This document shows positions 38,957 to 64,000 of a stretch of 64,000 nt of DNA, in pieces. The stretch is from Acidimicrobiia bacterium (GTDB taxonomy: Bacteria > Actinomycetota > Acidimicrobiia > IMCC26256 > JAMXLJ01), in the NCBI GenBank assembly GCA_036558745.1, contig DATBEZ010000003.1, forward strand, positions 196,352 to 260,351. Reading direction: 5' to 3'. Each line of letters opens with the position of its first letter. Positions within the stretch are counted from its first letter, which is position 1. The notes beneath the pieces were generated by a model. It ran no database searches. It saw only the letters and a program-made list of their open reading frames with translations, and was not told where the DNA came from. Position numbers and translations under genes: made by a program.

Positions 38957-39739
38957 GTGGACGAGGAGCCGACGGTGACGGACGACACTCCGAGCGCGGT
39001 GGTCGAGCCGCCGTGGTGGCGTCCGTCGCGCGCGACGGGTCGCCGTCGGCAGCCGCTGTCGCGCGAGCTCATCATCGAGGCCGCTGTGCGCATCCTCGAC
39101 GCCGAGGGCGCCGACGCGCTGACCGTGCGACGGCTCGGCGAGGAGCTGGACACCGGGTCCGCCACCCTCTACTGGTACGTCGGCAGCAAGGACGAGCTCG
39201 GCGAGCTCGTGTACGACCACGTGATGGGCGAGGTCGAGCTCCCCGAGCCGGACCCCGACCGATGGCAGGACCAGATCAAGCAGCTCGGGCGTCAGGCGTA
39301 CCGCGTGATGCTCCGGCACAACGACGCGGTGCGCCTGTCACTCGGTCGTGTCCCGGTCGGGCCGAACATGCTACGGATCATGGAGTGGAGCCTCGAGCTG
39401 TTCCGCCGCGCGGGCATCGACGAGCGCGCGGCGAGCTTCTTCGGCGACATCTTCGGCCGGTATCTCGACGCGTCCGTGCTCGAGGTGACCGCGCACGGAG
39501 GTCCGCCCGTCGAGCAAGTGGGCGCGTACTTCCAGTCGCTGCCGCCCGACCGCTTTCCGAACGTGGCCGCCTTGGCCGCGACGATGACGGGTGGGGACGA
39601 CGACGAGCGCTTCGAGTTCGGGCTCGATCTGCTCGTGCGCGGGCTCGAGACCTACGTCAGCGAGGAACGGAAGAGCCGGGACGCATCCCCGCGCACCCGC
39701 ACGCGACGATCCTCCGGCCGCGCCGGGTCAGGGCGGTGA
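38957..39739 (+). CDS. TetR-family transcriptional regulator
   Basis: In frame of ORF 38900..39739. TTG 38900 sits inside the operator palindrome, so GTG 38957 is preferred. LSRELIIEAAVRILDAEGADALTVRRLGEELDTGSATLYWYVGSKDEL. Confidence 0.8.
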   Translation: MDEEPTVTDDTPSAVVEPPWWRPSRATGRRRQPLSRELIIEAAVRILDAEGADALTVRRLGEELDTGSATLYWYVGSKDELGELVYDHVMGEVELPEPDPDRWQDQIKQLGRQAYRVMLRHNDAVRLSLGRVPVGPNMLRIMEWSLELFRRAGIDERAASFFGDIFGRYLDASVLEVTAHGGPPVEQVGAYFQSLPPDRFPNVAALAATMTGGDDDERFEFGLDLLVRGLETYVSEERKSRDASPRTRTRRSSGRAGSGR

Positions 39740-39934
39740 CTCGCTCACGCACTGCACGTCGACGAGGAGCAGACCCAGATCCCGGATCTTCTCGAGCGCG
39801 CGATGCAGCGTCGCCTGGTCCTGCACCTGGGCCCGCAACACCGTCTCGGTCGAGACCTCGAACCCGTCGAACGCCTGCGCGAGCCGGTCACCGATGTGAC
39901 CCTTGATGCGGATCTCGTACGCAGCGCCGGTCAT
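39728..39934 (-). CDS. small (68 aa) hypothetical protein, paralog 2 of a tandem pair
   Basis: In frame of ORF 39728..40009. ATG 39934 overlaps the upstream TGA (ATGA). MTGAAYEIRIKGHIGDRLAQAFDGFEVSTETVLRAQVQDQATLHRALEKIRDLGLLLVDV. Confidence 0.65.
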   Translation of the reverse strand: MTGAAYEIRIKGHIGDRLAQAFDGFEVSTETVLRAQVQDQATLHRALEKIRDLGLLLVDVQCVSESPP

Positions 39935-40152
39935 GGCGCACCGTCCGCAGGCGACGCGATCCCCGCACGGCGGACGTCGAGCAGCTCGAAGCCGTGCTCG
40001 TCGATCCACGCGAGGAGGCCGTGCAACGCGGCCTGATCGGCCAGCACGGCTCGAACGACGCTCTCGGTCCGCACGCTCGCGCCGTCGAAGAGATCCTCGA
40101 TCGGAGCGGGAACCGAACCCTTGACACGAACTTCGTACACGGCGCCGGGCAT
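39931..40152 (-). CDS. small (73 aa) hypothetical protein, paralog 1 of a tandem pair
   Basis: ORF 39931..40152. MPGAVYEVRVKGSVPAPIEDLFDGASVRTESVVRAVLADQAALHGLLAWIDEHGFELLDV. Aligns with the 68-aa neighbour along its whole length (YE[IV]R[IV]KG...FDG..V.TE.V.RA...DQA.LH..L..I...G..L.DV). Confidence 0.65.
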   Translation of the reverse strand: MPGAVYEVRVKGSVPAPIEDLFDGASVRTESVVRAVLADQAALHGLLAWIDEHGFELLDVRRAGIASPADGAP

Positions 40153-40187
40153 CTCGATCGCGACCCCTCGATCAGCCGAACCATCTG

Positions 40188-40754
40188 TCAGGATCGGCGG
40201 GAGAGGCGTGTGAGGTCGTCACCTCCATCGGATGATCCGACGGTGATGCGGGGTGATTCTTGCGTGACGAAACGACTCTCGAGCTCGACCCCGTGGACCC
40301 GCCAGTCGTAGACGACCCTGGTTCGGGCGAGCATGTCCGCCCAGCCCCGCCGCTTCGGGTCGAGCGCGACCCAGAGGAACCCGAGCCCGAAGGCCGCGGT
40401 CGAGAGTCCGTAGCCGACCAGGCGGACGAGGGCCCGCGCCCAGCCGACCCGCCCGCCGCTGCGGGCGACGACCCGGAGCCCGAGCACGGCCTTGCCGACG
40501 GTCTTCCCGAACCACCACCACGCGATCCAGAAGTAGAGGAGCGTCCAGGCTCCCAGCAGGATCGGCACGAGCCACGTCGGGATGGCGGCGACGTCGAGCT
40601 GACGGACGCGCAGCACCTGCACCGTCAGCGTTCCGAGCGCGAGCCCGCCATAGAAGGTCGCCGCGATCGCGAGCACATCGATCGTCATCGCGGCCGCCCG
40701 ACTGACGAAACCTGCCGTCGCGCCGGGGCCGCCCGGTGCAACCGGTGACCTCAC
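40188..40754 (-). CDS. RDD-family membrane protein
   Basis: C-terminal part of ORF 40188..41468. GTG 40754 overlaps the upstream TGA (GTGA). AGFVSRAAAMTIDVLAIA...WWWFGKTVGKAVLGLRVV...DPKRRGWADMLARTRVV is the RDD pattern. Confidence 0.8.
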   Translation of the reverse strand: MRSPVAPGGPGATAGFVSRAAAMTIDVLAIAATFYGGLALGTLTVQVLRVRQLDVAAIPTWLVPILLGAWTLLYFWIAWWWFGKTVGKAVLGLRVVARSGGRVGWARALVRLVGYGLSTAAFGLGFLWVALDPKRRGWADMLARTRVVYDWRVHGVELESRFVTQESPRITVGSSDGGDDLTRLSRRS

Positions 40755-41449
40755 CCGGGGGCCGCCGGCACGATCGCGGCACCGTCGGGCGGAACGCGAC
40801 GCTGGGCGCCGCGTCGGCGGAGCGGTGCGAGGATCCGGTCGACGAGCGTGTCGGCGTCGGCGGCGCGGGAACGCGCGACGTCGAGCACCCGGCCCGTCAC
40901 CGTCTCGGTCGACGAGACGATGATGTCGGTGAGCTCGAGACTGGCGATGATGTCGTCGAGCGGCAGCTGCTCGACGACATGGCCCACGTCGAAGCGGTCG
41001 ACGATCACGTCCGTCATCAGGGTCATCGCGTTCACGAGCGTCGCCGCCGCCACGGCCTGACTCCGCTCGCGCTCCGCGGCACCGGCGGCGCGCCACGCCG
41101 CGACCCGCCGGGATACCGGCGCGCGGACGATGACGGGCGTCACCGCGACGATGGTGGTCGGGACGCGCGCGACGGCGCCGGCCGCGGTGCGCGCGACGGT
41201 CGTGAGCGCGCCCGACGGGGGCCGGGCCGCGCCGTCGGTCGGGGGCGCGCCGCCTGTCGTCCCGTCGGGCGCGCCGACGGCCGCGGCACCGTCGAGCAGG
41301 CGCCCCAGGCCGCTTCCCGCGAGGAGGACCGTCCCGAGCGCGACGCGGGTCGCCGCGACGAGGCGCGCGCCGGTCCCGCTCGTCGGCGTCGTATCGGCGG
41401 CGCCGTCCCCTGTGGACAGCGCTTCCCGCGGAGGCCCGTCGGGCTGCAC
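40751..41449 (-). CDS. hypothetical protein with an Ala/Gly/Thr-rich N-terminal half and a conserved-looking acidic C-terminal half
   Basis: ORF 40751..41449 (GTG start). C-terminal VNAMTLMTDVIVDRFDVGHVVEQLPLDDIIASLELTDIIVSSTETVTGRVLDVARSRA looks like real protein. The N-terminal extent is uncertain. Confidence 0.55.
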   Translation of the reverse strand: MQPDGPPREALSTGDGAADTTPTSGTGARLVAATRVALGTVLLAGSGLGRLLDGAAAVGAPDGTTGGAPPTDGAARPPSGALTTVARTAAGAVARVPTTIVAVTPVIVRAPVSRRVAAWRAAGAAERERSQAVAAATLVNAMTLMTDVIVDRFDVGHVVEQLPLDDIIASLELTDIIVSSTETVTGRVLDVARSRAADADTLVDRILAPLRRRGAQRRVPPDGAAIVPAAPG

Positions 41450-41483: not shown

Positions 41484-41500
41484 TCACCCGTTCCGGGTGA
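41484..41500. promoter_or_regulatory. palindrome copy 1: TCACCCgttccGGGTGA
   Basis: Perfect 6+6 arms. Lies 33 nt after the LAL-1 stop and 35 nt upstream of the 232-aa/RDD/small-paralog operon start. Confidence 0.6.
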
Positions 41501-41532: not shown

Positions 41533-44076
41533 TCAGAGCAGTCCGAGCCGGCGCGCGCTGGCGACCGCCTCCTCGCGCGACCCGACGCCGAGCTTGCGGT
41601 AGATGGCCTTGACGTGCGACTTGAGCGTGTTGCGCGAGATGAAGAGCTCGCTCGCGATCTGGGCGCTGTTCCCCGCACCGCCGAGATGTCGGAGCACGAC
41701 GAGCTCACGCTCGCTGAGGGCCGCCGGTGCCGGCGGCGCGGGCCGGATCGTCACGGACGGAGCCCGTTCCTCCCAGAACACGGACGCGTACCGCTCCGGT
41801 TCGGCCAAGCGCACGGCCCGCTCGAGATGGCCCGCCGAGTCCGCCTCGCCCCTCGCGGCGCGGGCGAGGAGCAGCTCCCTGACGATCCGGTCGCGCGTGC
41901 CTTCGGGACGCGTCGCGTCGAGACGGGCCCGCGCCGACGCGGGATCGGCGGCCAGCTCCGCGCGCGCCTGGAGCAGCTCGCGCTCGACGGAAGGCGGGAG
42001 TGTCGCGATGAGCACGGCGGCCCGTTGGAGGTCACCCGTCCTGACGCGGATACGGGCCTCCAGCGCGTCCGCGCGACGGGCGAGCGCGGTCCCTTCCGAA
42101 CGCGCCCCATACGAACGCGCTCGGCCGAGTCGCCACGCGACGTCCTCGAGGTCGTCGCGTCGCCAGGCGAGTTCCGCATGTGCGAGCTCCGCGTGGGTGA
42201 GATGCATGACCGAGTCGAGATCCGCCGCGCGCGCCTCCAACTCCGTGAGCGCGGCTTCGGCGGCAGGTCGCTCGTCGCGCTCGAGGAGGACCCGGACGAG
42301 CGCGAGTTGAGCGTCGAGGACGCCGAAGTGGCCCGCAGGCGCGCTCGGCGCGTGACGGAGCGCGTCGCGTGCGAGCGCCTCCGCGTCCCGCAGCCGATCG
42401 TCTGCCGCCGCGACGTTGGCTCGGATCGCGGGAAGCACGACGAGCGACGCGACGTCCGAGAGCCGATCGCGCTCGCGGAGCAGATCGACCATCGCCTTCG
42501 CGTCCGGAAGTTGGCCGAGGATCAGGTACGAGCGGGCCAGGTTCACCGGCAACCGCTCGAACACGACGTCGTCCCACTCGCGCTCGTCGATGGGAAGCAT
42601 CGGGGCCCCGAGCTCCACCGCGCGTGCGGCATCCCCGCGCAAGGCCGCCAGCTGTGCCCGCATCGCGGCGAGCCGTCGCTCGAGCCCCGGTGCGGCGCCG
42701 TCCTCGACCACGGCCTGGGCCCGTTCGAGCCAGATGAGGGCGTCGGTGAAGCTCGATTGCATGACCAGCGCGACGACCAACCTCGCGATGCGCTGCGGCT
42801 CCGCGCCGACGTAGTCGGGCGGCAGCAGGTCGAGCCAGTCGCTCTGTCCCGAGCGCGTCGAGCGCCCGCGCGGTGCTTCCTCGATCGCGAGGGTGAACGC
42901 GCCGTCGGTGTCTCCTGCGTCGAGCAGATGGCTCACCGCGAGGCGTACGTCGCCCTCGTCACGGAACCACGCGGCCGCGACGGCATGGAGGCGGCGGAGG
43001 CGGTCCGGATCCCGGGCCTCGAGGTCGTTGCACAGGAAGTCGCGGAAGAACTGGTGGTAGCGGAACGATCGGCGGTGCGCGTCGAGGGGGACGAGGAACA
43101 GGCGGCGGTCCTCGATCGTCCGCAGCATCTCCTGCGTGTCGTCCCGCCCCGTCAACGCGCGGCAGAGCTCGACGTCGAACCTCTCGACGACGCAGGTGTC
43201 GCCCAGGAACTCGCGAACCGCGGTCGACTGGAGGCTCAGGACCTCGCGGACGAGGAGATCGGCGACCGCTTCCCGCCCGGTCGACGCATCCGCGTCCGCG
43301 TGCTCCGGACCGCGACGATGCGTCCCGCTCGACGCGAGCGCGGCGAGCTGCAGCCCGGCAACCCATCCCTCTGCTTCGTCCACCAGCGTCGCGAGATCCT
43401 CGTCCGCGAGCTCGACACCCTCGAACGAGGCGAGCAGCGCAGCCGCCTCGTCGCGCCGGAACGCGAGCGCCGACTCCGACACCTCGCCGACGAGGCCCCG
43501 GGCCCGCCACCGCGCGAGTGGGAGCGGCGGGTGCTGCCGCGTGATGAGCACGAACCGGAGCAGCGGCGGCGCGTGCTCGAGGAGCTGCTCGAGCGACCGG
43601 AGGACCCGGCGGTCGTGCACGACGTGCAGGTCGTCGAGCACGAGGACCAGTCGCCGTCGCGCCCGGGCCACGTCGGTGACGAGCGCGCCGACGAAGGCGT
43701 CGTCCGATGCGCCGGACTCGGTCAGCGCGTCGATGGCGCGCCTCGCCACCCCGGGCAGCGCGGCGTCGACGGCGGACAGGACGTCGTACCAGAAGCGCAT
43801 CGGGTGGTCGTCGCTGCGGTCGAACGTGAGCCACGCGACGCGCGAGCCGGCACGCTCGACCCAGTCCCGGACCGCAACCGTCTTTCCCCATCCCGTCTGC
43901 GCGATGACGAGGGTGATGTTCGGTCCCTCGGGTGGGGCCACGAGCGCGTCGAGCCGCGGACGGGCCACGTGGTGCGCGGCGCGCGGAGGCAGCCCGACCG
44001 TGCTCGTGACGCCGCCGGCCGACGCGTGCCCTGCATCGACGTCCATGACGCGCCCGCCGCCGTCGGCTGCGTTCAT
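41533..44076 (-). CDS. LAL-family (large ATP-binding LuxR / MalT-like STAND) transcriptional regulator, copy 1
   Basis: 3' part of the composite ORF 41533..46821. ATG 44076 overlaps the K+ channel stop (ATGA). Walker A AQTGWGKT, Walker B LVLVLDDLHVV, EGWVAGLQLAAL, long TPR-like region. C-terminal LuxR HTH: LSERELVVLRHLGGAGNSAQIASELFISRNTLKSHVKAIYRKLGV. Confidence 0.9.
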   Translation of the reverse strand: MNAADGGGRVMDVDAGHASAGGVTSTVGLPPRAAHHVARPRLDALVAPPEGPNITLVIAQTGWGKTVAVRDWVERAGSRVAWLTFDRSDDHPMRFWYDVLSAVDAALPGVARRAIDALTESGASDDAFVGALVTDVARARRRLVLVLDDLHVVHDRRVLRSLEQLLEHAPPLLRFVLITRQHPPLPLARWRARGLVGEVSESALAFRRDEAAALLASFEGVELADEDLATLVDEAEGWVAGLQLAALASSGTHRRGPEHADADASTGREAVADLLVREVLSLQSTAVREFLGDTCVVERFDVELCRALTGRDDTQEMLRTIEDRRLFLVPLDAHRRSFRYHQFFRDFLCNDLEARDPDRLRRLHAVAAAWFRDEGDVRLAVSHLLDAGDTDGAFTLAIEEAPRGRSTRSGQSDWLDLLPPDYVGAEPQRIARLVVALVMQSSFTDALIWLERAQAVVEDGAAPGLERRLAAMRAQLAALRGDAARAVELGAPMLPIDEREWDDVVFERLPVNLARSYLILGQLPDAKAMVDLLRERDRLSDVASLVVLPAIRANVAAADDRLRDAEALARDALRHAPSAPAGHFGVLDAQLALVRVLLERDERPAAEAALTELEARAADLDSVMHLTHAELAHAELAWRRDDLEDVAWRLGRARSYGARSEGTALARRADALEARIRVRTGDLQRAAVLIATLPPSVERELLQARAELAADPASARARLDATRPEGTRDRIVRELLLARAARGEADSAGHLERAVRLAEPERYASVFWEERAPSVTIRPAPPAPAALSERELVVLRHLGGAGNSAQIASELFISRNTLKSHVKAIYRKLGVGSREEAVASARRLGLL

Positions 44077-44819
44077 GCCGGCCCGCTGCCGCGTACGGTG
44101 TCCTCCGCTGCCGGCGACGGGGTGGCGAGACGTCGATGACCGATCGCGCCGACGAGCACGGCAACGACGGTCACGAGATAGATCTGGCCGAGCAGCGCCT
44201 CCATCACCGCGGACGCACGACCGAATCCGCCCGCAGCGGTGAGGTCGCCGTACCCGACCGTGGTCAGTGTGATGAAGCTGAAGTACAGGTAGTCCGAGAT
44301 CGTCGCGTGGTTCACCTGTGCGAAGAACGGGTTGCTGCCCAGGGTGCCGATCGCCGCGTAGACGAACGCGAACAGCATGCCGATGAGAACGTAGACGCAC
44401 AGCGCGCCGAGCACGGTGCGCACGTCGATGACCGCTCGCCGGATCAGGCCGCGGACGATCATGACGGGCGCCACGCCGACGAGCAACGCGCTCACGAGGA
44501 AATAGGCACCCCTCAGCGCGTCGCTCCCCTCGCCCCACGGCAAGGCGGCGATGAGCAGCAACGTGAACACGGCCATCACCACGCCGACGATGCGCACCGT
44601 GCGGGCATGGACGCGGGACGCACCCATCGCGACGAGGAGGGTCAGCTCCTGGAGCACGATGACCACGAGTCGCGCCCAGGCCTGGGTCGGCGCCGCCACC
44701 GAGACCACGTACGTCACCATCAGGAGCAGGAGCACGAGGCCGTAGCGGTACCCGGGAAGGCGACCCTCGAGGCTGCGAAGGCGCGGGTCCGACACTGGTC
44801 GCGTGACGTCCGTCGTCAT
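44073..44819 (-). CDS. potassium channel protein (TVGYGD selectivity filter)
   Basis: C-terminal 248 aa of ORF 44073..45374, from ATG 44819. Multiple TM helices. Pore region: ISDYLYFSFITLTTVGYGDLTA. Confidence 0.85.
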   Translation of the reverse strand: MTTDVTRPVSDPRLRSLEGRLPGYRYGLVLLLLMVTYVVSVAAPTQAWARLVVIVLQELTLLVAMGASRVHARTVRIVGVVMAVFTLLLIAALPWGEGSDALRGAYFLVSALLVGVAPVMIVRGLIRRAVIDVRTVLGALCVYVLIGMLFAFVYAAIGTLGSNPFFAQVNHATISDYLYFSFITLTTVGYGDLTAAGGFGRASAVMEALLGQIYLVTVVAVLVGAIGHRRLATPSPAAEDTVRGSGPA

Positions 44820-44929
44820 CCCTCGACCGGCGGGCAGCCGCCCACGGCGCTCCTCCTCGACCGCAGCGCCTGCGGATGGGAACCGTTCCCTGCGCCACCC
44901 GAGGCTGCCCGAGCCTCTGCACAGGGGCA

Positions 44930-44946
44930 TCACCCGCGACGGGTGA
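44930..44946. promoter_or_regulatory. palindrome copy 2: TCACCCgcgacGGGTGA
   Basis: Perfect arms. Sits in the 271-bp divergent gap between K+ channel/LAL-1 (start 44819) and LAL-2 (start 45091). Confidence 0.6.
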
Positions 44947-45090
44947 ACAGATCGCGAGCCCGAGCCGTGATCGGAATCGACGAAGGTTCCGCGGCGGTCT
45001 TGTTGCGAACTCGACTGCGCACCCCCACCCGTGGTGCGTCCGTTGTGATGTCGCGTCGGTGCTTGACAGAAGGTGGGATCCACGCCGACC

Positions 45091-47746: not shown

Positions 47747-47763
47747 TCACCCCGCGTGGGTGA
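47747..47763. promoter_or_regulatory. palindrome copy 3: TCACCCcgcgtGGGTGA
   Basis: Perfect arms (extendable to ATCACCC/GGGTGAT). Lies 14 nt after the LAL-2 stop and 79 nt upstream of the 84-aa gene. A second hairpin, TGATGTGGgagaCCACATCA, follows immediately at 47761-47780. Confidence 0.55.
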
Positions 47764-47841
47764 TGTGGGAGACCACATCACGGCCGGATTCTCACGGGGG
47801 CGGGCACACGATGCACCACGTCGGCCGGTGGGAGGCACGAC

Positions 47842-55626: not shown

Positions 55627-55646
55627 GATGGCTCCTCGTCGTCCGG

Positions 55647-55931
55647 TCACACGCCGAGCACCTGCGCCTTCGCCGTGCCGAACTCCGCGTCGGTCAGAGC
55701 GCCCGCATCGTGGAGCCGTGCGAGGCGCTCGAGCTGACCGGTGCGATCGGCCGACGCCACGACGGCGGGCGGCGAGGAGGACGAGCGGTAGGCGGATGGA
55801 GGCGGCGGATTGCCCATGGCGTGCCCGCCGCCGGCACGGCCGCGGGTGCCGGCGCGACCGGAAGCCTTCCCGGTCGCGTCACCGGCTGCGAGTCGGAGGA
55901 GTGACCGGCTCGGTCGCATGAGCAGCGCCAT
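55647..55931 (-). CDS. SHOCT-domain protein with a disordered Gly/Arg/Pro-rich N-terminus
   Basis: In frame of ORF 55647..55997, starting at ATG 55931. C-terminal GQLERLARLHDAGALTDAEFGTAKAQVLGV is a SHOCT motif. Confidence 0.6.
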   Translation of the reverse strand: MALLMRPSRSLLRLAAGDATGKASGRAGTRGRAGGGHAMGNPPPPSAYRSSSSPPAVVASADRTGQLERLARLHDAGALTDAEFGTAKAQVLGV

Positions 55932-56024
55932 GGACACCCCACTCCTTCGGCGGCCTCGACGACGGGCACGAGAGTCCCACTCGTGCACGGTGTGCATCGC
56001 ATCGCGCGCGCGACGGGTGCGACA

Positions 56025-56041
56025 TCACCCAGCCGGGGTGA
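56025..56041. promoter_or_regulatory. palindrome copy 6: TCACCCagccgGGGTGA
   Basis: Perfect arms. Sits in the divergent gap between SHOCT-NTF2-PPK2 (start 55931) and lipoprotein-DUF2252 (start 56138). Confidence 0.6.
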
Positions 56042-56058
56042 ACCTCCGGTTCGGGCGT

Positions 56059-56075
56059 TCACCCCGTCCGGGTGA
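56059..56075. promoter_or_regulatory. palindrome copy 7: TCACCCcgtccGGGTGA
   Basis: Perfect arms. Centre is 34 bp from copy 6. Its flank, GGGTGATGCC, is identical to that of copy 1. Confidence 0.6.
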
Positions 56076-56137
56076 TGCCCGGCCCCGCCCGTCCGCGGTG
56101 CGATGCACGAGGTCCGGCGATCGACGGGAGGTCCCCC

Positions 56138-56659
56138 ATGGGCACTCGCGCGCGGCTCTCGATCGCGCTCCTTCTGCTCGCGCTCCTCGGCGCGAGCGCG
56201 TGCTCGAGCTCCGGGTCGAGCTCGAAGAGCACATCGAATTCGAAATCGACGTCGACCACCACGAAGACGTACTCGATCTCGACGAGCGAGGGTGAGGCGT
56301 CGGTCTCACTCGACGGCAAGCTGCCCGCGGGATGGCCGCAGGGCTTCCCGGTCCCGTCCGGCGCGGACGCGGCGGGCTCCGGATCCGTCGCGGGCAAGTC
56401 CGAGGGTGTGATGGTCGGCGTGTACACGTTGTCGGGCTCCGCGCAGGACGCGTACAACTTCTACAAGAGCAACAGCCAGCTGACCGTCACGAGCTCGTCG
56501 TCCGTCGGCTCGAACAAGGCCTTCGTCGGCATGGTGAGCTTCAAGGGCTCCTACGACGGCTCCGTCACCATCGGTGCGGTCGGTGATACCAACGGACTGG
56601 TCGTCGTGCTGAACACGGGCGGTACGACGGGTTCGTCGTCGAGCACGACCGCTGCGTGA
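56138..56659 (+). CDS. putative lipoprotein, hypothetical
   Basis: In frame of ORF 56072..56659. ATG 56138 follows GGGAGG. Signal peptide plus lipobox: MGTRARLSIALLLLALLGASAC. Ser/Thr linker then a mixed-composition domain. Confidence 0.7.
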   Translation: MGTRARLSIALLLLALLGASACSSSGSSSKSTSNSKSTSTTTKTYSISTSEGEASVSLDGKLPAGWPQGFPVPSGADAAGSGSVAGKSEGVMVGVYTLSGSAQDAYNFYKSNSQLTVTSSSSVGSNKAFVGMVSFKGSYDGSVTIGAVGDTNGLVVVLNTGGTTGSSSSTTAA

Positions 56660-56675
56660 CCGACGGGAGGTTGCC

Positions 56676-58121
56676 ATGACGGTGGACGTGCAGGCGCCGT
56701 CGGAAACGGCCGTCCGGCGCATCGACCATCCCAGCGCGGACGAACGAGCCGCGCGCGGCCGCGAGGCGCGCCGTCTCGTCCCGCGCTCGTCGCACGCGGG
56801 GTGGAAGCCCGCCGACGACCGATCCGACCCCGTCGCCCTCCTGCAGGAGCAGGACCGCACTCGCGAGCCTGATCTCGTGCCGGTGCGTCACGGACGGATG
56901 ATGGCTTCGCCGTTCACGTTCTATCGCGGCGCGGCGAAGGTCATGGCCGCCGACCTCGAGGGCACACCCCGCGCCGGGCTCGAGGTGCAGCTCTGTGGCG
57001 ACGCGCACCTCTCGAACTTCGGCGTCTTCGCGTCACCCGAGCGCACACTGCTCTTCGATCTCAACGACTTCGACGAGACGCTGCCAGGCCCGTTCGAGTA
57101 CGACGTGGCGCGACTCGCTGCCAGCTTCGCCATCGCTGCACGCAACAACGGCTTCGCGGGCGCGGACGTCGCCGAAGCCGCGACGGCGACGGTGCGCTCG
57201 TACCGGAATGCCATCGCGGAGTTCGCCGAGATGGGAAACCTCGCGATCTGGTATTCGCGCCTTCCTGCCGACGACGTCCTCGATCTGATCCGTCGATCTG
57301 CGACCTCGAAGAAGGAACGGGTCGGCACCGCCCGGGCGGAGAAGCTCGTCGCGCAGGCGCGTACGCGCGACAGCGTGCAGGCGCTCGCGAAGCTGGGTGA
57401 GCTCGTCGACGGCCAGTACCGCATCGTGAGCCAGCCACCGCTCATCGTCCCCTTGCGCGACGTGGCCCTGCACTACGGGCTCGACCCCAAGGAGACGGAG
57501 GACGGGATCCGCGTCCTGTTGCGTCAGTACCGCGCGACGCTCGAGGACGATCGCCGCCACCTCCTGGACGGCTTCCAGGTCGTCGACGTCGCCCGAAAGG
57601 TCGTCGGCGTCGGCAGTGTCGGCACACGCGCCTTCATCGCGCTGCTCCAAGGCCGCGACGAAGCGGACCCGCTGTTCCTCCAGGTGAAGGAGGCGACGAC
57701 CTCGGTCCTGGAAGACCACCTGCCGAAGAGTCGATACGCGAACCACGGTGAGCGCGTCGTGCGGGGCCAACGCATGATGCAGGCCGCGAGCGACATCTTC
57801 CTCGGGTGGACGAGGGGCCTCGACGTCGACCGCCACTATTATTGGCGCCAGCTTCGCGACATGAAGGGTTCGGCGGCGGTCGAGACGATGTCGCCCCTCG
57901 CGATGAGCGTCTACGCGGGAATGTGCGGTTGGACGCTGGCCCGCGCGCACGCACGATCCGGTGACCCGATCGCGATCAACGCCTACCTCGGTCGCCGCGA
58001 CAGCTTCGACCGCGCCATGACCGACTTCGCGTGCCGGTACGCGGATCAGAACGAACGCGATTACGAACGGTTCGTCGACGCGATCCACGACGGAGCGCTC
58101 GAAGCCGAGGAGGGCGTCTGA
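56676..58121 (+). CDS. DUF2252 domain protein
   Basis: ORF 56676..58121. RHGRMMASPFTFYRGAAKVMAADL...CGDAHLSNFGVFASPERTLLFDLNDFDETLPGPFEYDVARLAASF is the DUF2252 signature. Confidence 0.85.
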   Translation: MTVDVQAPSETAVRRIDHPSADERAARGREARRLVPRSSHAGWKPADDRSDPVALLQEQDRTREPDLVPVRHGRMMASPFTFYRGAAKVMAADLEGTPRAGLEVQLCGDAHLSNFGVFASPERTLLFDLNDFDETLPGPFEYDVARLAASFAIAARNNGFAGADVAEAATATVRSYRNAIAEFAEMGNLAIWYSRLPADDVLDLIRRSATSKKERVGTARAEKLVAQARTRDSVQALAKLGELVDGQYRIVSQPPLIVPLRDVALHYGLDPKETEDGIRVLLRQYRATLEDDRRHLLDGFQVVDVARKVVGVGSVGTRAFIALLQGRDEADPLFLQVKEATTSVLEDHLPKSRYANHGERVVRGQRMMQAASDIFLGWTRGLDVDRHYYWRQLRDMKGSAAVETMSPLAMSVYAGMCGWTLARAHARSGDPIAINAYLGRRDSFDRAMTDFACRYADQNERDYERFVDAIHDGALEAEEGV

Positions 58122-58216
58122 GCGAGAGCGTCGAGGCACGCTTCGGTCCGGACGCGAATTCCGTGTTCAACCGACGCGGATCAGGGAAACGACTGAAGGA
58201 CCGAATCTCCCCGGGG

Positions 58217-58429
58217 ATGCAGACGATGACCGCTGGCGACACGGCTCGGAGTGGTGCCCTCCACCCTGCGATCGCGGCCGAGATGGCGACCCTGCTGCGC
58301 GAATCCGCCGACACCGTCGAAGAGCTGGCCGGGTGCGGCGACGCCCGGGCCCGGCTCGCGCTCTGGCAGCAGCTCGCGTCGCACATGGCGAGGTTCGACA
58401 CGCTGCTCCCCGAGGAGCTGCCTCTCTGA
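58217..58429 (+). CDS. small (70 aa) hypothetical protein
   Basis: 3' part of ORF 58031..58429, from ATG 58217 (or 58226). GC3 is high. HPAIAAEMATLLRESADTVEELAGCGDARARLALWQQLASHMARFDTLL. Followed by the hairpin GGGGGA-N6-TCCCCC. Confidence 0.45.
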   Translation: MQTMTAGDTARSGALHPAIAAEMATLLRESADTVEELAGCGDARARLALWQQLASHMARFDTLLPEELPL

Positions 58430-58569
58430 GCGCAGCCGCCTGGGGCATCGAGGGCCGCCGGGGGACGTTCATCCCCCTCGGATGACGACCGTTCGGGCGA
58501 CCGGACGCGAGAGTGCCGGCACACGCGCACTCCAGCGCGGTCCGAGTCGTCGAGCCGGAGGCGGTTGTG

Positions 58570-59946
58570 ATGGCAGACGGCACTGGTACCGAGCCGCGGC
58601 GAGACACCGAGGTCGAGACCCTCCAAGCGGAGCTGGACGCCGAGCGGAAGCACGCCGCCGACCTCGAGGCCCGCAACGCCGCCCTCCAAGGCCGCGACCC
58701 CGCGAAGAACGGCAGCGACGGGACCAAGCGGGCTCGGCGAGGCCACCGCTGGTTGGTCGCCCTCCTCCTCGTGCTGGGCTTCATCCTCACCCCGATCACG
58801 ATCGTGGTGCTCTTCGCGCACACCGAGCTCACGGACACCGGGCGCTATGTCTCGACGATCAAGCCGCTTGCGAGCGACCCGGCGGTCCAGGCCTACGCCG
58901 CCGATCAGATCACGACGAACCTCTTCGACCAGGTCGATGTCAACGCGTACGTCAAGGACGCGTTGCCGGACCGGGCCCAGGCGCTCGCCGGCCCGCTCAC
59001 GAGCGCGCTCCGGAGCTTCACCCACGAAGCCGCGCTGCGGCTGCTGGAGAGCAAGGAGTTCCAGACCCTCTGGGTCGAGGCGAACCGGGCCGCGCACAGC
59101 CAGATCAACGACATCCTGAGCGGCAGGAAGGGCGGTGGCGCCATCAGCGCCAACACCAACGGCGCCATCACCCTCGACCTCTCCAAGCTCGCGCAGCGGG
59201 TCAAGCAGCGGCTGGAGGACACGGGCATCGGCGTGTTCTCCAAGATCCCGGCCGACAAGGTCTCGGGCAAGATAACGATCTTCCAGGCGCGGAACCTCTA
59301 CAAGGCCCGCCGCGGCCTTCAGGCCCTGAACCGGCTCGCGTTCGTGTTGCCCTTCCTGGTGTTCGCGTGCTTCGGCGGCGCCATCTTCCTGTCCCGGAAC
59401 CGCCGCCGCGGCTTCATTAAAGCCGCCGTCGTGTTCACGCTGGGTGCCGCGCTTCTCGCGGTGGTCCTCGCCATCACGCGGGGCCTCTACTTGGACAGTG
59501 CCGTCAACAATGGCATCCCCCACGACGCGGCCGCGTCGGTCTACGACAACTTGATCCGGCTGTTGCAGACCTCGATGCGCAGCATCCTTGCGTTCAGCAT
59601 CGTGGTCGTCGTGGTGGCCGTGCTCGCCGGGCCGTCACGGCTGGCCGTGTGGTTCCGGGCCGAGATGCGCGCCGCCGCGAGCTGGTTGGGCCGACAGAGC
59701 GACGCCGCAGGCTGGAGCGCGTTGGGCCCCAGCGGGTTCGTCGTCGCCCACAAGGCCGGCATGCGGATCGCGGTCGCCGTCATCGGCTTCGCCGTCCTGT
59801 TCCTCTGGAACCGGCCGACCCCCATGGTCGTCGTGTGGCTCGGGGTGCTGGCGTTGCTGGCGCTCGCGCTGATCGAGTTCTTCGGACGTGAGCGCAGCGC
59901 GCCTGCGGTGGGCACCGCCCCACCCGCCGTCAGCGCCCCCGCCTAG
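58570..59946 (+). CDS. integral membrane protein, hypothetical (coiled N-terminus, large loop, multi-TM C-terminal half)
   Basis: In frame of ORF 58513..59946. ATG 58570 follows GGAGG. WLVALLLVLGFILTPITIVVLFA and several later TM helices. Confidence 0.7.
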   Translation: MADGTGTEPRRDTEVETLQAELDAERKHAADLEARNAALQGRDPAKNGSDGTKRARRGHRWLVALLLVLGFILTPITIVVLFAHTELTDTGRYVSTIKPLASDPAVQAYAADQITTNLFDQVDVNAYVKDALPDRAQALAGPLTSALRSFTHEAALRLLESKEFQTLWVEANRAAHSQINDILSGRKGGGAISANTNGAITLDLSKLAQRVKQRLEDTGIGVFSKIPADKVSGKITIFQARNLYKARRGLQALNRLAFVLPFLVFACFGGAIFLSRNRRRGFIKAAVVFTLGAALLAVVLAITRGLYLDSAVNNGIPHDAAASVYDNLIRLLQTSMRSILAFSIVVVVVAVLAGPSRLAVWFRAEMRAAASWLGRQSDAAGWSALGPSGFVVAHKAGMRIAVAVIGFAVLFLWNRPTPMVVVWLGVLALLALALIEFFGRERSAPAVGTAPPAVSAPA

Positions 59947-60001: not shown

Positions 60002-60019
60002 TCACCCACAGTGGGGTGA
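60002..60019. promoter_or_regulatory. palindrome copy 8: TCACCCacagtgGGGTGA (6-nt spacer)
   Basis: Arms are extendable to CTCACCC/GGGTGAG. Lies 95 nt upstream of the LAL-3/SulP unit and 56 nt after the upstream membrane-protein stop. Confidence 0.55.
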
Positions 60020-60113
60020 GGCGGGATCACCCTGACCCGGCGCATGCTGCGGACGGGAGCGGTGAAGGGGCGCGGGGCACCGTGTCCCGGCGGCGAACGA
60101 AAGGCGGACCGGG

Positions 60114-62327
60114 GTGGTGACGGTCGTACCAGATCGCTTCCGTGCAGGCACGGCGCGGCAGCCTTGGAAGACGTCCCGGGCGGAGGTCCCGCGATCTCTG
60201 CTCATCGAGCGGCTCGTCGCCGCCGGCGACCGTCTCGTCGCGGTCGCCGCTCCCGCGGGCTACGGGAAGACGACGCTGCTCCGGCAGTGGGCCGAGGCCG
60301 ACGAACGGCCCTTCGCGTGGGTCGCGGCCGACGGCACGAGCAACGACCCGCGCGCATTGCTCCTCGCGATCATGCGCGCGCTCGATGACCTCGACCCGTT
60401 CGGACACCATGCGGTGTCGTCGCTCGATGGCGCGGAGACCCAGACCGTCGCGTCGGTCCTCCACATGGGCGCGGTCCTCGCGACCCTCGGCACGCCGTGC
60501 GTGCTGGTCATCGACGACGTTCACCATCTCGTGTCACCTCACGCGCTGCTCGTCGTCTCCGAGGTGTCGCGTGCGCTGCCGTCGGGCAGCCGTCTCGTGC
60601 TGAGCGGGCGCTGCGACGCGACGCTCGATCTGGAGTTGCTCCCGGGCCATGTCTTCGCGCGACCGCTCCGCGTCGGCGCGTCGGATCTCGCGTTCGACGC
60701 GACGGAGGGTGAGCTGTTGCTCGGCGCGACGGGTGTTCTGCTGGACGCGGGCGAGCTCGAGACCGTCATGAGGCGCACCGAGGGATGGCCGACCGCTCTC
60801 GCGATCGCCGCGATGTCGCTCGACGACGACAACAGCGTCGACGACTTCGACGGCGGCGACCGTCGCATCGTCGACTACGTCGATCGTGCCGTGCTCGATC
60901 AGCTCGAGCCGACCATCGTCGACTTCCTGCTCCAGACCGCCGTGCTCGAGGAGCTCACGCCGTCGTTGTGCGACGCGGTGAGCGAGCGTGACGACTCCGC
61001 CCAGTTGTTGGAGCGTCTGCATCGGGCCAACCTGTTCGTCGTCCCTCTCGACTCCCGGGCCGAGCGCTTCCGCTACCACCGCTTGTTCCGAGAGGCGCTG
61101 CAGCACGAGCTGCACCGTCGGGATCCGCTCGCCGAGCAACCTCTGCACCGGCGCGCGAGCGGCTGGTACACGGCGCACGGGCGGCTGGAGCCCGCGATCC
61201 GGCACTCGATCGCCGCGTCCGACGACGAGCATGCGGCCTGGTTGGTCTGGCAGAACGCGCCGACGTGCATCACGCGCGGTCAGGTTGCGACGTTGCAGCA
61301 CTGGTTGGACGCGTTCGGCGAGGACCAGACCGCCGGCCACCCGTTGCTGGCCCTGACCGCCGCATCGGTCGACGCGGTCGAGGGCCGTGCCGACGAGGCG
61401 ACGCACTGGTTGTGGGTGGCACAGCACTCGGCGTCGGCCGTCGACTACGCGACCGACGAGGACGTCGAGGCCCATGCGCTCCTGCTGAGGTCGTTGCTGT
61501 CCGAGCACGGTCTCGCGGCGATGCAGGCGGACGCGACCCGCGCCTTCGAGCTGGATCGCGACGCCAGTCCGTGGCGCGCGCTCGCCGGGCTGTACCTCGG
61601 CGTCACGCACCACCTCGCCGGGGACGACGACGCGGCGCGGCGCGCGCTCGAAGACGCGCTCGTCCGCTCTGCCGTCCTGTGGCCGAGCGTGCACGCGAAC
61701 TGCCTCGCGGAGCTCGCATTGCTCGACGCCGAGAGCGGCGCCTGGGAGCGCGCCGCGGAACGGGCCGATCTCGCGCAGCAGTGCGTCGCGAAGCGGCGGC
61801 TCGACGACCACGCGCCGGTGGCGATCGTTCCCGCGGTGGCGGCCCTGACGCTCGTGCACCGGCGCGAGGCCCGCAGCGCGCGGGAGTGCTTGGGTCACGG
61901 CCAGCGACTGGTGAGATCGCTTGGTCGCGTCGCGCCCGCGCTGCGGGCCGAGACGCTCACGGTGCTCGCGCGCGCCGCGCTCCTGTCGGGCGACACGGCG
62001 ATGACGAAGGAATTGCTGCGAGAGCTCCGTCCCCTCGTCGCGGCGATGCCGGAAGCCGTCGCGCTGCGCACGCGCGTCGACGAGCTCGACGTCGACCTGG
62101 AAGTGGTCGCAGACACGATCGTGGGGCCGCTCGCGCTCACGGCCGCCGAGCTGCGCGTGCTCGGGTACCTCCCGATGCACCTGTCGATGGCCGAGATCGC
62201 CGAGAAGCTCTACGTCTCGCGCAACACCGTGAAGTCGCAGGCGATCGCGATCTACCGCAAGCTCGCGGTCTCGTCACGCGGGGCCGCGGTCAGCCGGGCA
62301 CGCGAGCTCGGCCTCCTCGACACCTGA
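60114..62327 (+). CDS. LAL-family (MalT-like STAND + LuxR HTH) transcriptional regulator, copy 3
   Basis: ORF 60114..62327 (GTG). Walker A APAGYGKTT, Walker B CVLVIDDVHHL, EGWPTALAIAAM. HTH: LTAAELRVLGYLPMHLSMAEIAEKLYVSRNTVKSQAIAIYRKLAV. Confidence 0.9.
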   Translation: MVTVVPDRFRAGTARQPWKTSRAEVPRSLLIERLVAAGDRLVAVAAPAGYGKTTLLRQWAEADERPFAWVAADGTSNDPRALLLAIMRALDDLDPFGHHAVSSLDGAETQTVASVLHMGAVLATLGTPCVLVIDDVHHLVSPHALLVVSEVSRALPSGSRLVLSGRCDATLDLELLPGHVFARPLRVGASDLAFDATEGELLLGATGVLLDAGELETVMRRTEGWPTALAIAAMSLDDDNSVDDFDGGDRRIVDYVDRAVLDQLEPTIVDFLLQTAVLEELTPSLCDAVSERDDSAQLLERLHRANLFVVPLDSRAERFRYHRLFREALQHELHRRDPLAEQPLHRRASGWYTAHGRLEPAIRHSIAASDDEHAAWLVWQNAPTCITRGQVATLQHWLDAFGEDQTAGHPLLALTAASVDAVEGRADEATHWLWVAQHSASAVDYATDEDVEAHALLLRSLLSEHGLAAMQADATRAFELDRDASPWRALAGLYLGVTHHLAGDDDAARRALEDALVRSAVLWPSVHANCLAELALLDAESGAWERAAERADLAQQCVAKRRLDDHAPVAIVPAVAALTLVHRREARSARECLGHGQRLVRSLGRVAPALRAETLTVLARAALLSGDTAMTKELLRELRPLVAAMPEAVALRTRVDELDVDLEVVADTIVGPLALTAAELRVLGYLPMHLSMAEIAEKLYVSRNTVKSQAIAIYRKLAVSSRGAAVSRARELGLLDT

Positions 62328-62330
62328 GCC

Positions 62331-64000
62331 GTGGCCGAACCCGTCCGCGGGATCGAGCGCTGGATCCCGGGCGTCACGAGCCTCGCGACGTACCGGCGCG
62401 GGTGGCTCCGGTCCGACGTCGTCGCCGGGATCGTGCTCGCCGCGATCCTCATCCCGCAGGGGATGGCCTACGCGGAGCTCGCGGGGCTCCCGGCAGTCAC
62501 CGGGTTGTACACGACGGTCGCCTGTCTCGTCGGCTACGCGCTGTTCGGCCCGTCGCGGGTGCTCGTGCTCGGCCCGGACTCCTCCGTGGGACCGCTGATC
62601 CTCGTCGCGATCACACCGTTGCTCGTCACCAACGATCCGAAGAGCGCGGTCGCGCTCGCGGGCGTGCTCGCGCTGCTGGTCGGGCTCATCGAGATCGGCC
62701 TCGGCGTCGCCAAGCTCGGGTTCGTCGCCGACCTCCTCTCGATCGAGATCCAGGTCGGCTACATGAACGGCCTCGCGATCACGATCATCGTCGGGCAGCT
62801 CCCGAAGCTGTTCGGGTTCTCGACCGATGCCACGTCGTTTCTCGGCGACGTCCGCGCGTTCTTCGGCTCGCTCGACGAGACGTCCGCGGTCACGCTCACG
62901 GTCGGCCTCGCGGTGCTGGCAACGTTGCTGGTGCTGCCCCACTTCACGCGGCGGGTTCCGGCGGTGCTCGTCGCGGTCGTCGGTGCAACCGTCGTGTCGG
63001 CGGTGTTCGACCTTGCGGCGCACGGCGTCGCCACGGTCGGATCGCTGCCCAGCGGCCTGCCCCGGCCCTCCTTCCCGTGGACGAACGCGAAGGACGCCCT
63101 CGAGCTGCTCGCGGCTGCGGCCGGGATCACGCTCGTCTCGCTGACCGACACGATCGCGACGGCGGCCAGCTTCGCGGCGCGTCGTGGGGAGGAGGTTCAC
63201 CCGAACCAGGAGATGATCGGCATCGGCGCCGCCAACATCGCAGCCTCGTTCTTCCAGGGCTTCGCGGTGTCGACGAGCGGATCGCGCACGGCCGTCGCGG
63301 AGCAGTCGGGTGCGAAGAGTCAGGTCACCGGTCTGGTCGGGGCGGGACTGGTGGTGATCCTGCTGCTCTTCCTCAATTCACTGCTCGCCGACCTTCCCCA
63401 GACCGTGCTCGCCGCGGTCGTCATCGCCGCCGCCCTCTCCCTGGCCAACCTCGCCGCGATACGGAGGTACTACGCCGTCCGCAAGAGCGCGTTCGTGCTC
63501 TCGCTCGTCGCGACGCTGGGCGTCGTGCTCTTCGGTGTGCTCGAAGGGATCGGCATCGCGGTCGGGCTCGCCGTGCTGCTGGTGTTCCAACGGAATTGGC
63601 GTGCGCACAGTGCCGTCCTCGGCCAGGTTGAAGGGATCGAGGGCTGGCACGACGTCGAGCGCTTCCCGCATGCGGCGCAACCGCCGCGCATCGTGGTGTA
63701 CCGGTGGGAGGCACCACTGTTCTTCGCCAACGCCGGTGCGTTCCGGGAGGAGGTGTTGAGCATCGCTCGCGAGCGCAAGCCCGACTGGGTCGTCGTCCAC
63801 TGCGAGGCCGTGACCGACGTGGACGTGACCGCGGCGGAGATGCTCGAAGACCTCGACAAGGACCTCAACGCCAACGGGATCCACATGGCCTTCGCAGGCA
63901 TGCGGACGCGTCTCCAGGATCTCATCGTGCGCTACGGCCTGTTCGAGACGCTCGATCGCGACCACTTCTACCCGACGCTGGACGCGGCGCTCGACGCGAT
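62331..64000 (+). CDS. SulP-family anion transporter with a C-terminal STAS domain, 3' end outside window
   Basis: Absent from the ORF track because there is no stop in the window. My translation from GTG 62331, 3 nt after the LAL-3 stop, reads VAEPVRGIERWIPGVTSLATYRRGWLRSDVVAGIVLAAILIPQGMAYAELAGLPAVTGLYTT...VGYMNGLAITIIVGQLPKLFG...; late VVYRWEAPLFFANAGAFRE is STAS. Confidence 0.85.
   Translation, partial: MAEPVRGIERWIPGVTSLATYRRGWLRSDVVAGIVLAAILIPQGMAYAELAGLPAVTGLYTTVACLVGYALFGPSRVLVLGPDSSVGPLILVAITPLLVTNDPKSAVALAGVLALLVGLIEIGLGVAKLGFVADLLSIEIQVGYMNGLAITIIVGQLPKLFGFSTDATSFLGDVRAFFGSLDETSAVTLTVGLAVLATLLVLPHFTRRVPAVLVAVVGATVVSAVFDLAAHGVATVGSLPSGLPRPSFPWTNAKDALELLAAAAGITLVSLTDTIATAASFAARRGEEVHPNQEMIGIGAANIAASFFQGFAVSTSGSRTAVAEQSGAKSQVTGLVGAGLVVILLLFLNSLLADLPQTVLAAVVIAAALSLANLAAIRRYYAVRKSAFVLSLVATLGVVLFGVLEGIGIAVGLAVLLVFQRNWRAHSAVLGQVEGIEGWHDVERFPHAAQPPRIVVYRWEAPLFFANAGAFREEVLSIARERKPDWVVVHCEAVTDVDVTAAEMLEDLDKDLNANGIHMAFAGMRTRLQDLIVRYGLFETLDRDHFYPTLDAALDA

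Follow-up and report, generated by a model that had tools for sequence, protein, structure and literature searches.

A palindromic operator with MalT-like LAL regulators in an Acidimicrobiia gene island: a probable counterpart of the Actinoplanes MalT regulon

Introduction

The closest described system to the one treated here was found in Actinoplanes sp. SE50/110, where the MalT-like regulator ACSP50_3915 activates a region of 51 genes named MRLGR (Droste et al. 2020, PMC7567727). Deletion of ACSP50_3915 lowers the expression of 42 of the 51 genes and its overexpression raises that of 39, while a second MalT-like gene of the region (3917) shows slight effects only. A MEME search found the motif 5'-TCATCC-5nt-GGATGA-3' upstream of 17 mapped transcription starts; it overlaps the -35 element, with 34.4 ± 1.0 nt between its 3' end and the start, and the authors relate it to the core GGA(T/G)GA of the E. 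coli MalT box. Maltose and growth phase both affect the region, which the authors found in Micromonosporaceae only, with ppk2 genes in relatives. Its gene table includes SHOCT, DUF1269 (three genes), AI-2E, BrkB/YihY, MFS, diacylglycerol kinase (DAGK), DUF308, glucosidase/amylase and the two LuxR/MalT genes, and DUF2252 is present in the region of A. missouriensis (PMC7567727). Here we analyze a stretch of 64,000 nucleotides (the window) from contig DATBEZ010000003.1 of an Acidimicrobiia bacterium, in which the palindrome TCACCC-N5-GGGTGA recurs in a block that also encodes three MalT-like regulators of the LAL type (LAL-1 to LAL-3). The block, at 39.7-64 kb and beyond, is very probably the Acidimicrobiia version of the Actinoplanes MalT-like (LAL) activator island. 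The initial annotation of the window had proposed a candidate undescribed regulon and knew of no described regulon with this operator, a claim that is not supported, given that the operator, its overlap with the -35 element and a MalT-like activator were published for Actinoplanes in 2020 (PMC7567727). Our literature search found no later paper extending the Actinoplanes MalT system.

The same half-sites occur in a second described system. The Group I box of BldM in Streptomyces venezuelae, 5'-TCACcCgnncGgGTGA-3', has 16 bp and a 4-nt spacer, and BldM is an orphan response regulator that activates a developmental regulon including whiB and ssgR (Al-Bassam et al. 2014, PMC4125116).

Results

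Copies of the palindrome in the window

The eight copies of TCACCC-N5/6-GGGTGA reported in the initial annotation were all confirmed in position and sequence. A pattern search for the N5 form, allowing at most one mismatch, gave seven matches in the window (G+C content of 68-74%), all of them within 41.4-56.1 kb: five perfect copies at 41484, 44930, 47747, 56025 and 56059, and two copies with one mismatch at 50021 and 53466. The chance expectation is 0.19 per window, and none of 100 dinucleotide-preserving shuffles reached seven. A perfect copy with a 6-nt spacer (N6) is located at 60002. The same search found no N5 copy in 1-39.7 kb, in agreement with the initial annotation, which had not seen the motif in 1-39 kb; furthermore, spacings from 0 to 15 other than N5 and N6 gave no perfect copy in the window, and there were no N4 copies. 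Genes were called by a codon log-odds model for which the window and related loci served as training data. Under these calls the eight sites are intergenic, as the initial annotation had stated, although this holds for 53466 only with the GH15 start at 53388 and not with the ATG inside the site; the start at 53388 is favoured because the predicted promoter geometry requires it.

Related loci, especially that of another Acidimicrobiia metagenome-assembled genome (MAG; locus L002), show that position 4 of each arm is degenerate, and the consensus is therefore TCA(C/T)CC-N5-GG(G/A)TGA, so that the mismatch copies at 50021 and 53466 are consensus sites. With this degeneracy allowed, a ninth strong site appears at 58469, and weaker sites with a correctly placed -10 add three more, at 53528, 49489 and 40219. 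In total, the 24-kb block has nine strong and three weak sites and the other 40 kb has none. A natural polymorphism was also seen at the tolerated position 4, since L001:22-38 has GGGATGA where the window has GGGGTGA (56025-56041).

Conservation in related loci

Phylogenetic footprinting, proposed in the initial annotation, found equivalent sites in two relatives. In L003, whose LAL-2 is 85% identical, the sites are kept. L002, whose LAL-2 is 52% identical, has a syntenic island with RDD, small genes, PLDc_N-SHOCT, LAL-1, K+ channel, LAL-2, MFS, GH15, SnoaL, SHOCT, lipoprotein and DUF2252, and 12 sites in gaps equivalent to those of the window. A third locus, L001, is a 13-kb JGI contig near-identical to the end of the window and about 4 kb longer; its extension carries a further site between a DUF308 gene, just past the window end, and a 162-aa gene.

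To look beyond these relatives, one genome per species (GTDB) was scanned independently of any protein, for two sites 10-40 nt apart, in 8-kb bins. The scan gave at least 120 bins, and all counts below are among the matches listed (101 non-repeat bins, 840 kb). The matches belong mostly to several classes of Actinomycetota, with a few Chloroflexia; listed taxa are Kribbella, Nocardia, Streptomyces, Micromonospora, Actinoplanes, Microbacterium, Cellulomonas, Williamsia, Nakamurella, Solirubrobacterales, Thermoleophilia, Gaiellaceae and Acidimicrobiia. About 87% of this DNA is coding, and 274 of the 279 N5 sites (98%) are intergenic and in most cases precede a start codon by 40-160 bp. The spacer length of 5 nt is strict: the other spacings from N2 to N9 give at most two sites each, and N4 gives one against 279 for N5. 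The arms are invariant and the spacers vary with no compensatory changes, and both arms are equally conserved even at unidirectional promoters. At least one recurring gene family is present in 92 of the 101 bins. The families, named from Pfam and homology to the window genes, and the number of bins in which they occur are:

SHOCT proteins: 43 bins
DUF7144: 31 bins
LAL: 28 bins
DUF6325: 25 bins
MFS: 23 bins
70-aa protein family: 21 bins
AI-2E transporter: 18 bins
DUF1269: 16 bins
SfLAP: 16 bins
SulP: 15 bins
sulfatase: 14 bins
DUF2252: 13 bins
K+ channel: 11 bins
FGE: 10 bins
BrkB: 10 bins
GH15: 8 bins
DAGK: 7 bins

Among the large gene clusters near the sites, LAL is the sole regulator family, with 42 genes in 32 loci (by Pfam or homology to the window genes). 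In two further Actinoplanes loci (L086 and L097), the motif is accompanied by DUF6325, SHOCT, BrkB, MFS, DUF2252, DUF1269 and AI-2E; comparison of the published Actinoplanes qPCR primers with the loci, including these two, gave chance matches only, with 2-3 mismatches. Paired sites with differing spacers and outward -10s were also observed in two MAGs labelled uncultured Chloroflexia (L005:5070-5132 and L023:2880-2942). They adjoin a common 726-aa gene, with MFS in the same bins and AI-2E about 4 kb away, and hint that the system is present outside Actinomycetota, if the binning of these two is right.

Tandem hairpin arrays with the same arms (TCACCC...GGGTGA) were observed in Planctomycetota, Verrucomicrobia, Myxococcales, Acidobacteria and low-GC MAGs, for example L048:4348-4859, L060:2055-2298, L069:3991-4079, L015:4060-4138, L083 and L105. 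Their spacers are identical and repeat with regular periods of 24-49 bp, and neither the -10 geometry described below nor regulon genes were found with them, so they were rejected as members of the regulon and are considered unrelated repeats. A scan based on the motif only would confuse them with the operator.

Promoter geometry

The flanks of the sites were aligned on the site, with offsets counted from its first base. This alignment shows an A at +40 or +41 and a T four bases on (A-N3-T), which is the minimal -10 of actinobacterial housekeeping promoters. The frequencies of A-N3-T are:

At +40/+41, flanks without a second site downstream: 232 of 361 (64%)
At +40/+41, those of these flanks that face a gene start 45-250 bp away: 163 of 211 (77%)
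At any other offset: about 2%
At +40/+41, flanks pointing towards a second site: essentially absent

The distance from the site end to the A of A-N3-T is 23-24 nt, the proximal arm is separated from the -10 hexamer by 22 nt, and the bases directly after the proximal arm are biased (tGc). Because the -7 T falls at +44/+45, transcription should start 34-35 nt from the site end, which should place the site centre near -43 and the proximal arm near -37.5. Each site serves one promoter, and the apparent double sites are back-to-back divergent promoters, since A-N3-T occurs on one side only and is essentially absent towards the second site. In the window, this rule directs 41484, 44930, 50021 and 53466 to the left and 47747, 58469 and 60002 to the right, and 56025 and 56059 outward. 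The initial annotation had favoured a sequence-specific operator over a generic hairpin, and the retention of the sites in a syntenic island together with the fixed distance to the -10 bears this out.

In the paired sites of loci L004-L123, the centre-to-centre and start-to-start distances cluster near 28, 38 and 48 bp, with a 10-bp periodicity (R = 0.33, p < 0.001 against a uniform null). Both activator dimers would then lie on one face of the DNA, an arrangement that would suit cooperative MalT-like oligomers.

The LAL proteins and their recognition helices

The three LAL genes of the window are:

LAL-1, 41533-44076, minus strand: MalT-like STAND ATPase with TPR and GerE helix-turn-helix (HTH), by Pfam and the NCBIfam MalT model (294 bits)
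LAL-2, 45196-47733, plus strand: MalT-like, 845 aa, 100% identical to an NCBI protein (P0001) of an Acidimicrobiia MAG
LAL-3, 60114-62327, plus strand: divergent MalT-like paralog with about 130 bits to LAL-1/2, followed by SulP-STAS (62331-end)

LAL-1 is called as co-transcribed behind the K+ channel gene (44073-44795). AAA_16/22, TPR_MalT and GerE domains were found in the three proteins, and the precomputed domains of P0001, the protein identical to LAL-2, include WHD_MalT. The best solved structure for LAL-2 is E. coli MalT (8BOB, E = 3.9e-39), and MalT is also the best-matching NCBIfam model. With scores of 294, 276 and 233 bits against an equivalog cut-off of 537 in the NCBIfam MalT model, and no mal genes in the island, the window LALs were rejected as equivalogs of E. 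coli MalT. Apart from the LALs, the window encodes a single GerE-type HTH protein, a PAS-LuxR regulator of 374 aa (10741-11865, plus strand); it lies 30 kb from the island, and no operator copy was found near its gene.

Translation confirmed the three HTH strings given in the initial annotation. The HTH signature NT(V/L)K(T/S)H...(Y/H)RKL is found in the three window LALs, in the LALs of L002 and L003, and in P0011 and P0035, and sites adjoin all of them. A test that started from the protein found two sites in L127 and one in L129, and the neighbours of P0016, which is predicted to have sites, fit the island (DUF6325, sulfatase and a 69-aa gene). A different HTH signature, NTVR(T/S)HT...YAKL, is found in P0054 (Geodermatophilus), P0062 (Cryobacterium) and P0020 (loci L124, L125 and L131), and no TCAYCC-N5-GGRTGA site was found in the 68 kb of L124, L125 and L131. 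Whole-length similarity does not delimit the motif-linked LALs, with pairwise scores of 60-550 bits, and the HTH signature alone separates the groups. Like the motif, its conservation and the promoter geometry, this tie of the sites to one LAL subgroup was observed directly.

The LALs of L124, L125 and L131 (about 10001-14000 in each) form a tight sister clade with more than 900 bits mutually, each followed by a 75-96-aa gene and a DUF4386 gene. This clade presumably represents a separate LAL regulon with its own operator.

Promoters and target genes of the island

The promoters assigned to the strong sites of the window are:

41484-41500, minus strand: operator TCACCCGTTCCGGGTGA, -10 GATGCT at 41461-41456; faces the unit of the 232-aa, RDD and small proteins; equivalents at L003:445 and L002:2784
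44930-44946, minus strand: operator TCACCCGCGACGGGTGA, -10 CAGCCT at 44907-44902; faces the K+ channel/LAL-1 operon; equivalents at L002:9728 and L003:3868
47747-47763, plus strand: operator TCACCCCGCGTGGGTGA, -10 GATTCT at 47787-47792; faces the 84-aa gene; equivalent at L003:6748
50021-50037, minus strand: operator TCACCCGGCAGGGATGA, position-4 variant, -10 CACCCT at 49998-49993; faces two tiny membrane-protein genes and DAGK; L002:13687 in the same place
53466-53482, minus strand: operator TCATCCCGGCGGGGTGA, -10 GAGCGT at 53443-53438; faces the GH15-MFS operon; same -10 GAGCGT at L002:17186
56025-56041, minus strand: operator TCACCCAGCCGGGGTGA, left half of a back-to-back pair, non-canonical -10 TGCGAT; faces SHOCT-SnoaL-PPK2; L002:18977 has -10 GACAGT
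56059-56075, plus strand: operator TCACCCCGTCCGGGTGA, right half of the pair, non-canonical -10 TGCGAT; faces lipoprotein-DUF2252; equivalent at L002:19025
58469-58485, plus strand: operator TCATCCCCCTCGGATGA, absent from the initial annotation, -10 GAGAGT at 58509-58514; faces the 477-aa SHOCT-cluster gene
60002-60019, plus strand: operator TCACCCACAGTGGGGTGA with an exceptional 6-nt spacer, -10 CATGCT at 60043-60048; faces LAL-3/SulP; identical in L001:3999

The weaker candidates and a further N6 copy are:

53528-53544, plus strand: degenerate operator TCGCCCGCTGTGGGGGA, -10 CACCCT at 53567-53572; faces PLDc_N-SHOCT; identical 17-mer and -10 at L002:17252
49489-49505, minus strand: weak candidate operator TCCTCCCGAGCGGGTGA, -10 CACGAT at 49466-49461; directly before DAGK
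40219-40235, minus strand: weak candidate operator TCACCTCCATCGGATGA in the 3' end of the RDD gene, -10 GATCCT at 40195-40190; faces the two 68-73-aa paralogs
45182-45199, no strand assigned: N6 copy with one mismatch, TCACACGTCCGCGGGTGA; covers the probable GTG start of LAL-2; perfect in L003:4182-4199, absent in L002

The palindrome thus stands before most transcription units of the block, as the initial annotation had described, which had missed 58469, 53528, 49489, 40219 and 45182. At the N6 site 60002, the -10 is at the normal distance when measured from the proximal arm. The site at 41484 follows directly after the LAL-1 stop codon, and its predicted start coincides with the GTG start codon (41449) of the 232-aa gene, which points to a leaderless mRNA. 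Three called starts lie upstream of the predicted transcription starts and are probably wrong: ATG 53469 for GH15, 58513 for the 477-aa gene and 9724 for the K+ channel gene of L002.

The site at 44930 had been placed between two divergent units, K+ channel/LAL-1 and LAL-2. It does face the former, but a correctly placed -10 towards LAL-2 was looked for and is absent. The N6 palindrome at 45182, flanked by no -10 to its left or right, may serve autoregulation as a repressing site or may have no role. Since neither copy offers LAL-2 a correctly placed -10, LAL-2 may be expressed independently of the sites. A sigma-70 and terminator scan of the LAL-2 gap (44800-45300) gave no match of either kind; TTGACA-18-GACCAT at 45063-45092 is a tentative promoter candidate seen by eye in this gap.

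The genes that these promoters face are:

39728-41449, minus strand: 232-aa protein, RDD protein and two small paralogs of a 68-73-aa family (39728-39934 and 39931-40152, both minus)
47842-59946, no strand assigned: 84-aa three-helix-bundle protein, DAGK, two tiny membrane proteins, MFS, GH15, PLDc_N-SHOCT, PPK2, SnoaL, SHOCT, lipoprotein, DUF2252, 70-aa protein and 477-aa protein

The Pfam matches (three LALs, K+ channel, DAGK, MFS, GH15, PLDc_N-SHOCT, PPK2, SnoaL, SHOCT, DUF2252, SulP-STAS and RDD) agree with the gene content read in the initial annotation, whose description of a stress or dormancy island is a guess. The 84-aa protein (47842-48096, plus strand) has no Pfam match and matches the NCBIfam 'MSMEG_6209_Nter three-helix bundle dimerization domain' with E = 8e-15. 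The two small paralogs belong to a 68-83-aa family (the 70-aa family of the scan) for which no Pfam or NCBIfam match was found. Its genes are often the direct target of a site; they stand beside the LAL gene for eight of 26 long LALs, and nine of 25 members have a LAL neighbour (e.g., L031:6632-6883, L107:3080-3277, L034:5902-6120 and L129:1823-2041). The 68-83-aa protein may be a partner or modulator of the LAL regulator.

Discussion

Proposed mechanism and rival explanations

We propose that each 17-bp palindrome acts as an activator site that replaces the -35 element (class-II-type). The LAL protein, with a STAND ATPase, a MalT-type winged helix and TPR sensor and a C-terminal GerE HTH, would be switched on by ATP and an inducer, after which a pair of its HTH domains would contact both arms and bring in RNA polymerase. 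About 12 island promoters would be controlled like this. Among them are the promoter of LAL-3 and that of LAL-1, whose gene follows the K+ channel gene, so that positive feedback would result. The dependence of such promoters on a MalT-like LAL is taken by analogy from the Actinoplanes genetics, and binding by the window LALs, the roles of the paralogs and the signal are inferred. An inducer derived from alpha-glucan is a reasonable guess, because these islands repeatedly encode alpha-glucan enzymes (GH15 in the window, amylase/glucosidase in Actinoplanes) and maltose elicits a response of the Actinoplanes region.

The initial annotation had named the LALs as candidate binders, including autoregulation, on account of their near-identical recognition helices. 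They stand as the best candidates, because of the syntenic conservation, the fixed -10, their being the sole regulator family near the sites and the match to the Actinoplanes MalT regulon, and LAL-1 and LAL-3 do lie downstream of sites; the similar helices, however, are a family trait of MalT-like proteins and alone are no proof of specificity. Several other points weigh against a LAL as the reader of the sites. Taken together, the motif-linked LALs vary widely, just 28 of the 101 bins of 8 kb show a LAL gene, and the HTH signature is common to many MalT-like proteins, which makes it suggestive and not diagnostic. LAL-2 itself is without a site having a correctly placed -10, and the two promoters at 56025 and 56059 have a non-canonical -10. 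Furthermore, the evidence for MalT in Actinoplanes is genetic only (PMC7567727), and another LuxR-type protein could compete or substitute, as BldM, a non-LAL GerE protein, reads the same half-site.

This last point leads to an explanation in which the palindrome is bound by another LuxR/GerE regulator encoded elsewhere, such as a BldM-like orphan response regulator, with the LAL genes as mere targets. The activator BldM of Streptomyces does use the same half-sites (PMC4125116), and no LAL is found within 8 kb in 73 of the 101 bins. The BldM spacer, however, is 4 nt, against 5 nt in the 279 sites counted here and a single N4 site; the only other GerE protein of the window lies 30 kb off; and the motif is present in Acidimicrobiia, Thermoleophilia and, provisionally, Chloroflexia. 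In addition, the HTH signature splits the LAL clades with and without sites, and deletion and overexpression of a MalT-like gene control the Actinoplanes region (PMC7567727). We therefore regard a foreign GerE reader as unlikely. The BldM Group I regulon itself was rejected: the window has no N4 site, the 840 kb have one N4 against 279 N5 sites, and the island has no response-regulator GerE gene.

Two explanations that dispense with a LuxR-type activator appear weaker still. The arm GGGTGA might be a -35-like element of an alternative sigma factor, with incidental palindromy, an idea favoured by the fixed distance between the site and the -10 and by the GGGTA-like elements of SigB/SigF-type actinobacterial promoters. 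An incidental palindrome is nevertheless difficult to reconcile with the equal conservation of both arms at unidirectional promoters, the gap of 22 nt from arm to -10 is too long for sigma-70-family spacing, the -10 is of the ordinary housekeeping type A-N3-T, and the Actinoplanes genetics implicates MalT (PMC7567727), all of which makes a sigma-factor element very improbable. Scarcely any weight is left for the copies being hairpins of the repetitive extragenic palindromic (REP) or terminator type, which would exert their effect as DNA or RNA without a regulator of their own. In favour of this idea, the GC-rich arms of 6 bp are able to pair as a hairpin, the site at 41484 stands directly behind the LAL-1 stop codon, and hairpin arrays with the same arms are known in Planctomycetota, Verrucomicrobia and Myxococcales. 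Those arrays, however, have identical spacers and no -10 geometry, whereas the island has varied spacers and invariant arms with no compensatory changes. Moreover, 98% of the sites are intergenic, generally 40-160 bp before start codons, and they lie upstream of the predicted starts and therefore would be mostly untranscribed; no T-tract or terminator-like site was found in the one gap scanned (44800-45300), and there was no Rfam match. A REP-like element, which the initial annotation had named as the case against an operator, is likewise at odds with the 274 of 279 intergenic sites, the strict 5-nt spacer and the fixed -10.

Extent of the system

A regulon controlled by MalT-like LALs appears to extend beyond the published work in its spread over several classes of Actinomycetota (provisionally also Chloroflexia: L005 and L023), in a conserved core of uncharacterised membrane-protein genes and in a strict site-to-(-10) rule. 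It is somewhat more probable than the contrary that this is an ancient regulon of Actinomycetes, Acidimicrobiia, Thermoleophilia and possibly Chloroflexia, with a core of small membrane proteins (SHOCT, DUF7144, DUF6325, DUF1269 and the 70-aa LAL-linked protein) joined by channels/transporters and storage-polymer enzymes, in which three divergent LAL sensors here would feed different signals into one operator. The sole experimental study saw the system in one family, whereas our data indicate that the operator, the geometry and the core genes recur across distant actinobacterial classes. Cultured carriers are found in Kribbella, Nocardia, Streptomyces, Microbacterium, Cellulomonas and Solirubrobacter, and the function of the families SHOCT, DUF7144, DUF6325, DUF1269 and DUF2252 becomes testable via one regulator. 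The geometry also provides a sequence rule (site, 23-24 nt, A-N3-T) for activator-dependent promoters and their starts in high-GC genomes.

Comparison with known systems

PhoP PHO boxes are direct repeats, and CRP/FNR sites have the opposite arm orientation; to our knowledge, none of the PHO boxes, CRP/FNR sites, DosR/OsdR box and CsoR sites matches the 6-5-6 TCACCC/GGGTGA palindrome. The BldM system shares with the island the identical half-sites TCACCC and GGGTGA, arranged as a palindrome bound by a GerE-type HTH dimer, and activation as the outcome; it differs in its 4-nt spacer, in the use of an orphan response regulator instead of a LAL, and in the developmental nature of its regulon.

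MalT of E. coli and Klebsiella pneumoniae is, like the window LALs, an activator built of a STAND NTPase, a winged helix, a TPR-like sensor and a GerE HTH. Its half-site core in E. coli, GGA(T/G)GA, resembles GG(G/A)TGA, and the proximal box overlaps the -35 element (via PMC7567727). However, MalT boxes are asymmetric decamers in repeats and not a 6-5-6 palindrome, and the E. coli regulon serves maltodextrin uptake and catabolism, while no malEFG, malPQ or lamB-type genes were found in the island by Pfam.

The likeness to Actinoplanes covers motif, spacer, distance to the start, type of regulator and cargo, features that were derived here independently of the published work. Both islands have a palindromic operator with a 5-nt spacer that overlaps the -35 element in many promoters of one island, and the distance from the site end to the start, mapped at 34.4 ± 1.0 nt in Actinoplanes, is 34-35 nt here as inferred from the -10 position. 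Both encode MalT-like LAL activators inside the island, in more than one copy, the window LALs being matched by type and not to the ACSP50_3915 sequence. The two systems draw on an overlapping gene pool of SHOCT, AI-2E, BrkB, MFS, DAGK, DUF308, DUF2252, PPK2 and alpha-glucan hydrolases; the cargo common to MRLGR and the window is SHOCT, MFS, DAGK, DUF2252 and PPK2, with DUF308 just past the window end. They differ in their host, Micromonosporaceae there and an Acidimicrobiia MAG here, and in the preferred arm, which here is TCACCC/GGGTGA with TCATCC/GGATGA as a minor variant. Furthermore, there are three LAL paralogs here against two in Actinoplanes, and the island has K+ channel, SulP-STAS, GH15, PPK2 and RDD genes where Actinoplanes has an arginine deiminase operon, amylase/glucosidase and peptidases. 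The window island is thus best placed as a further example of the published regulator-operator pair and opens no new category.

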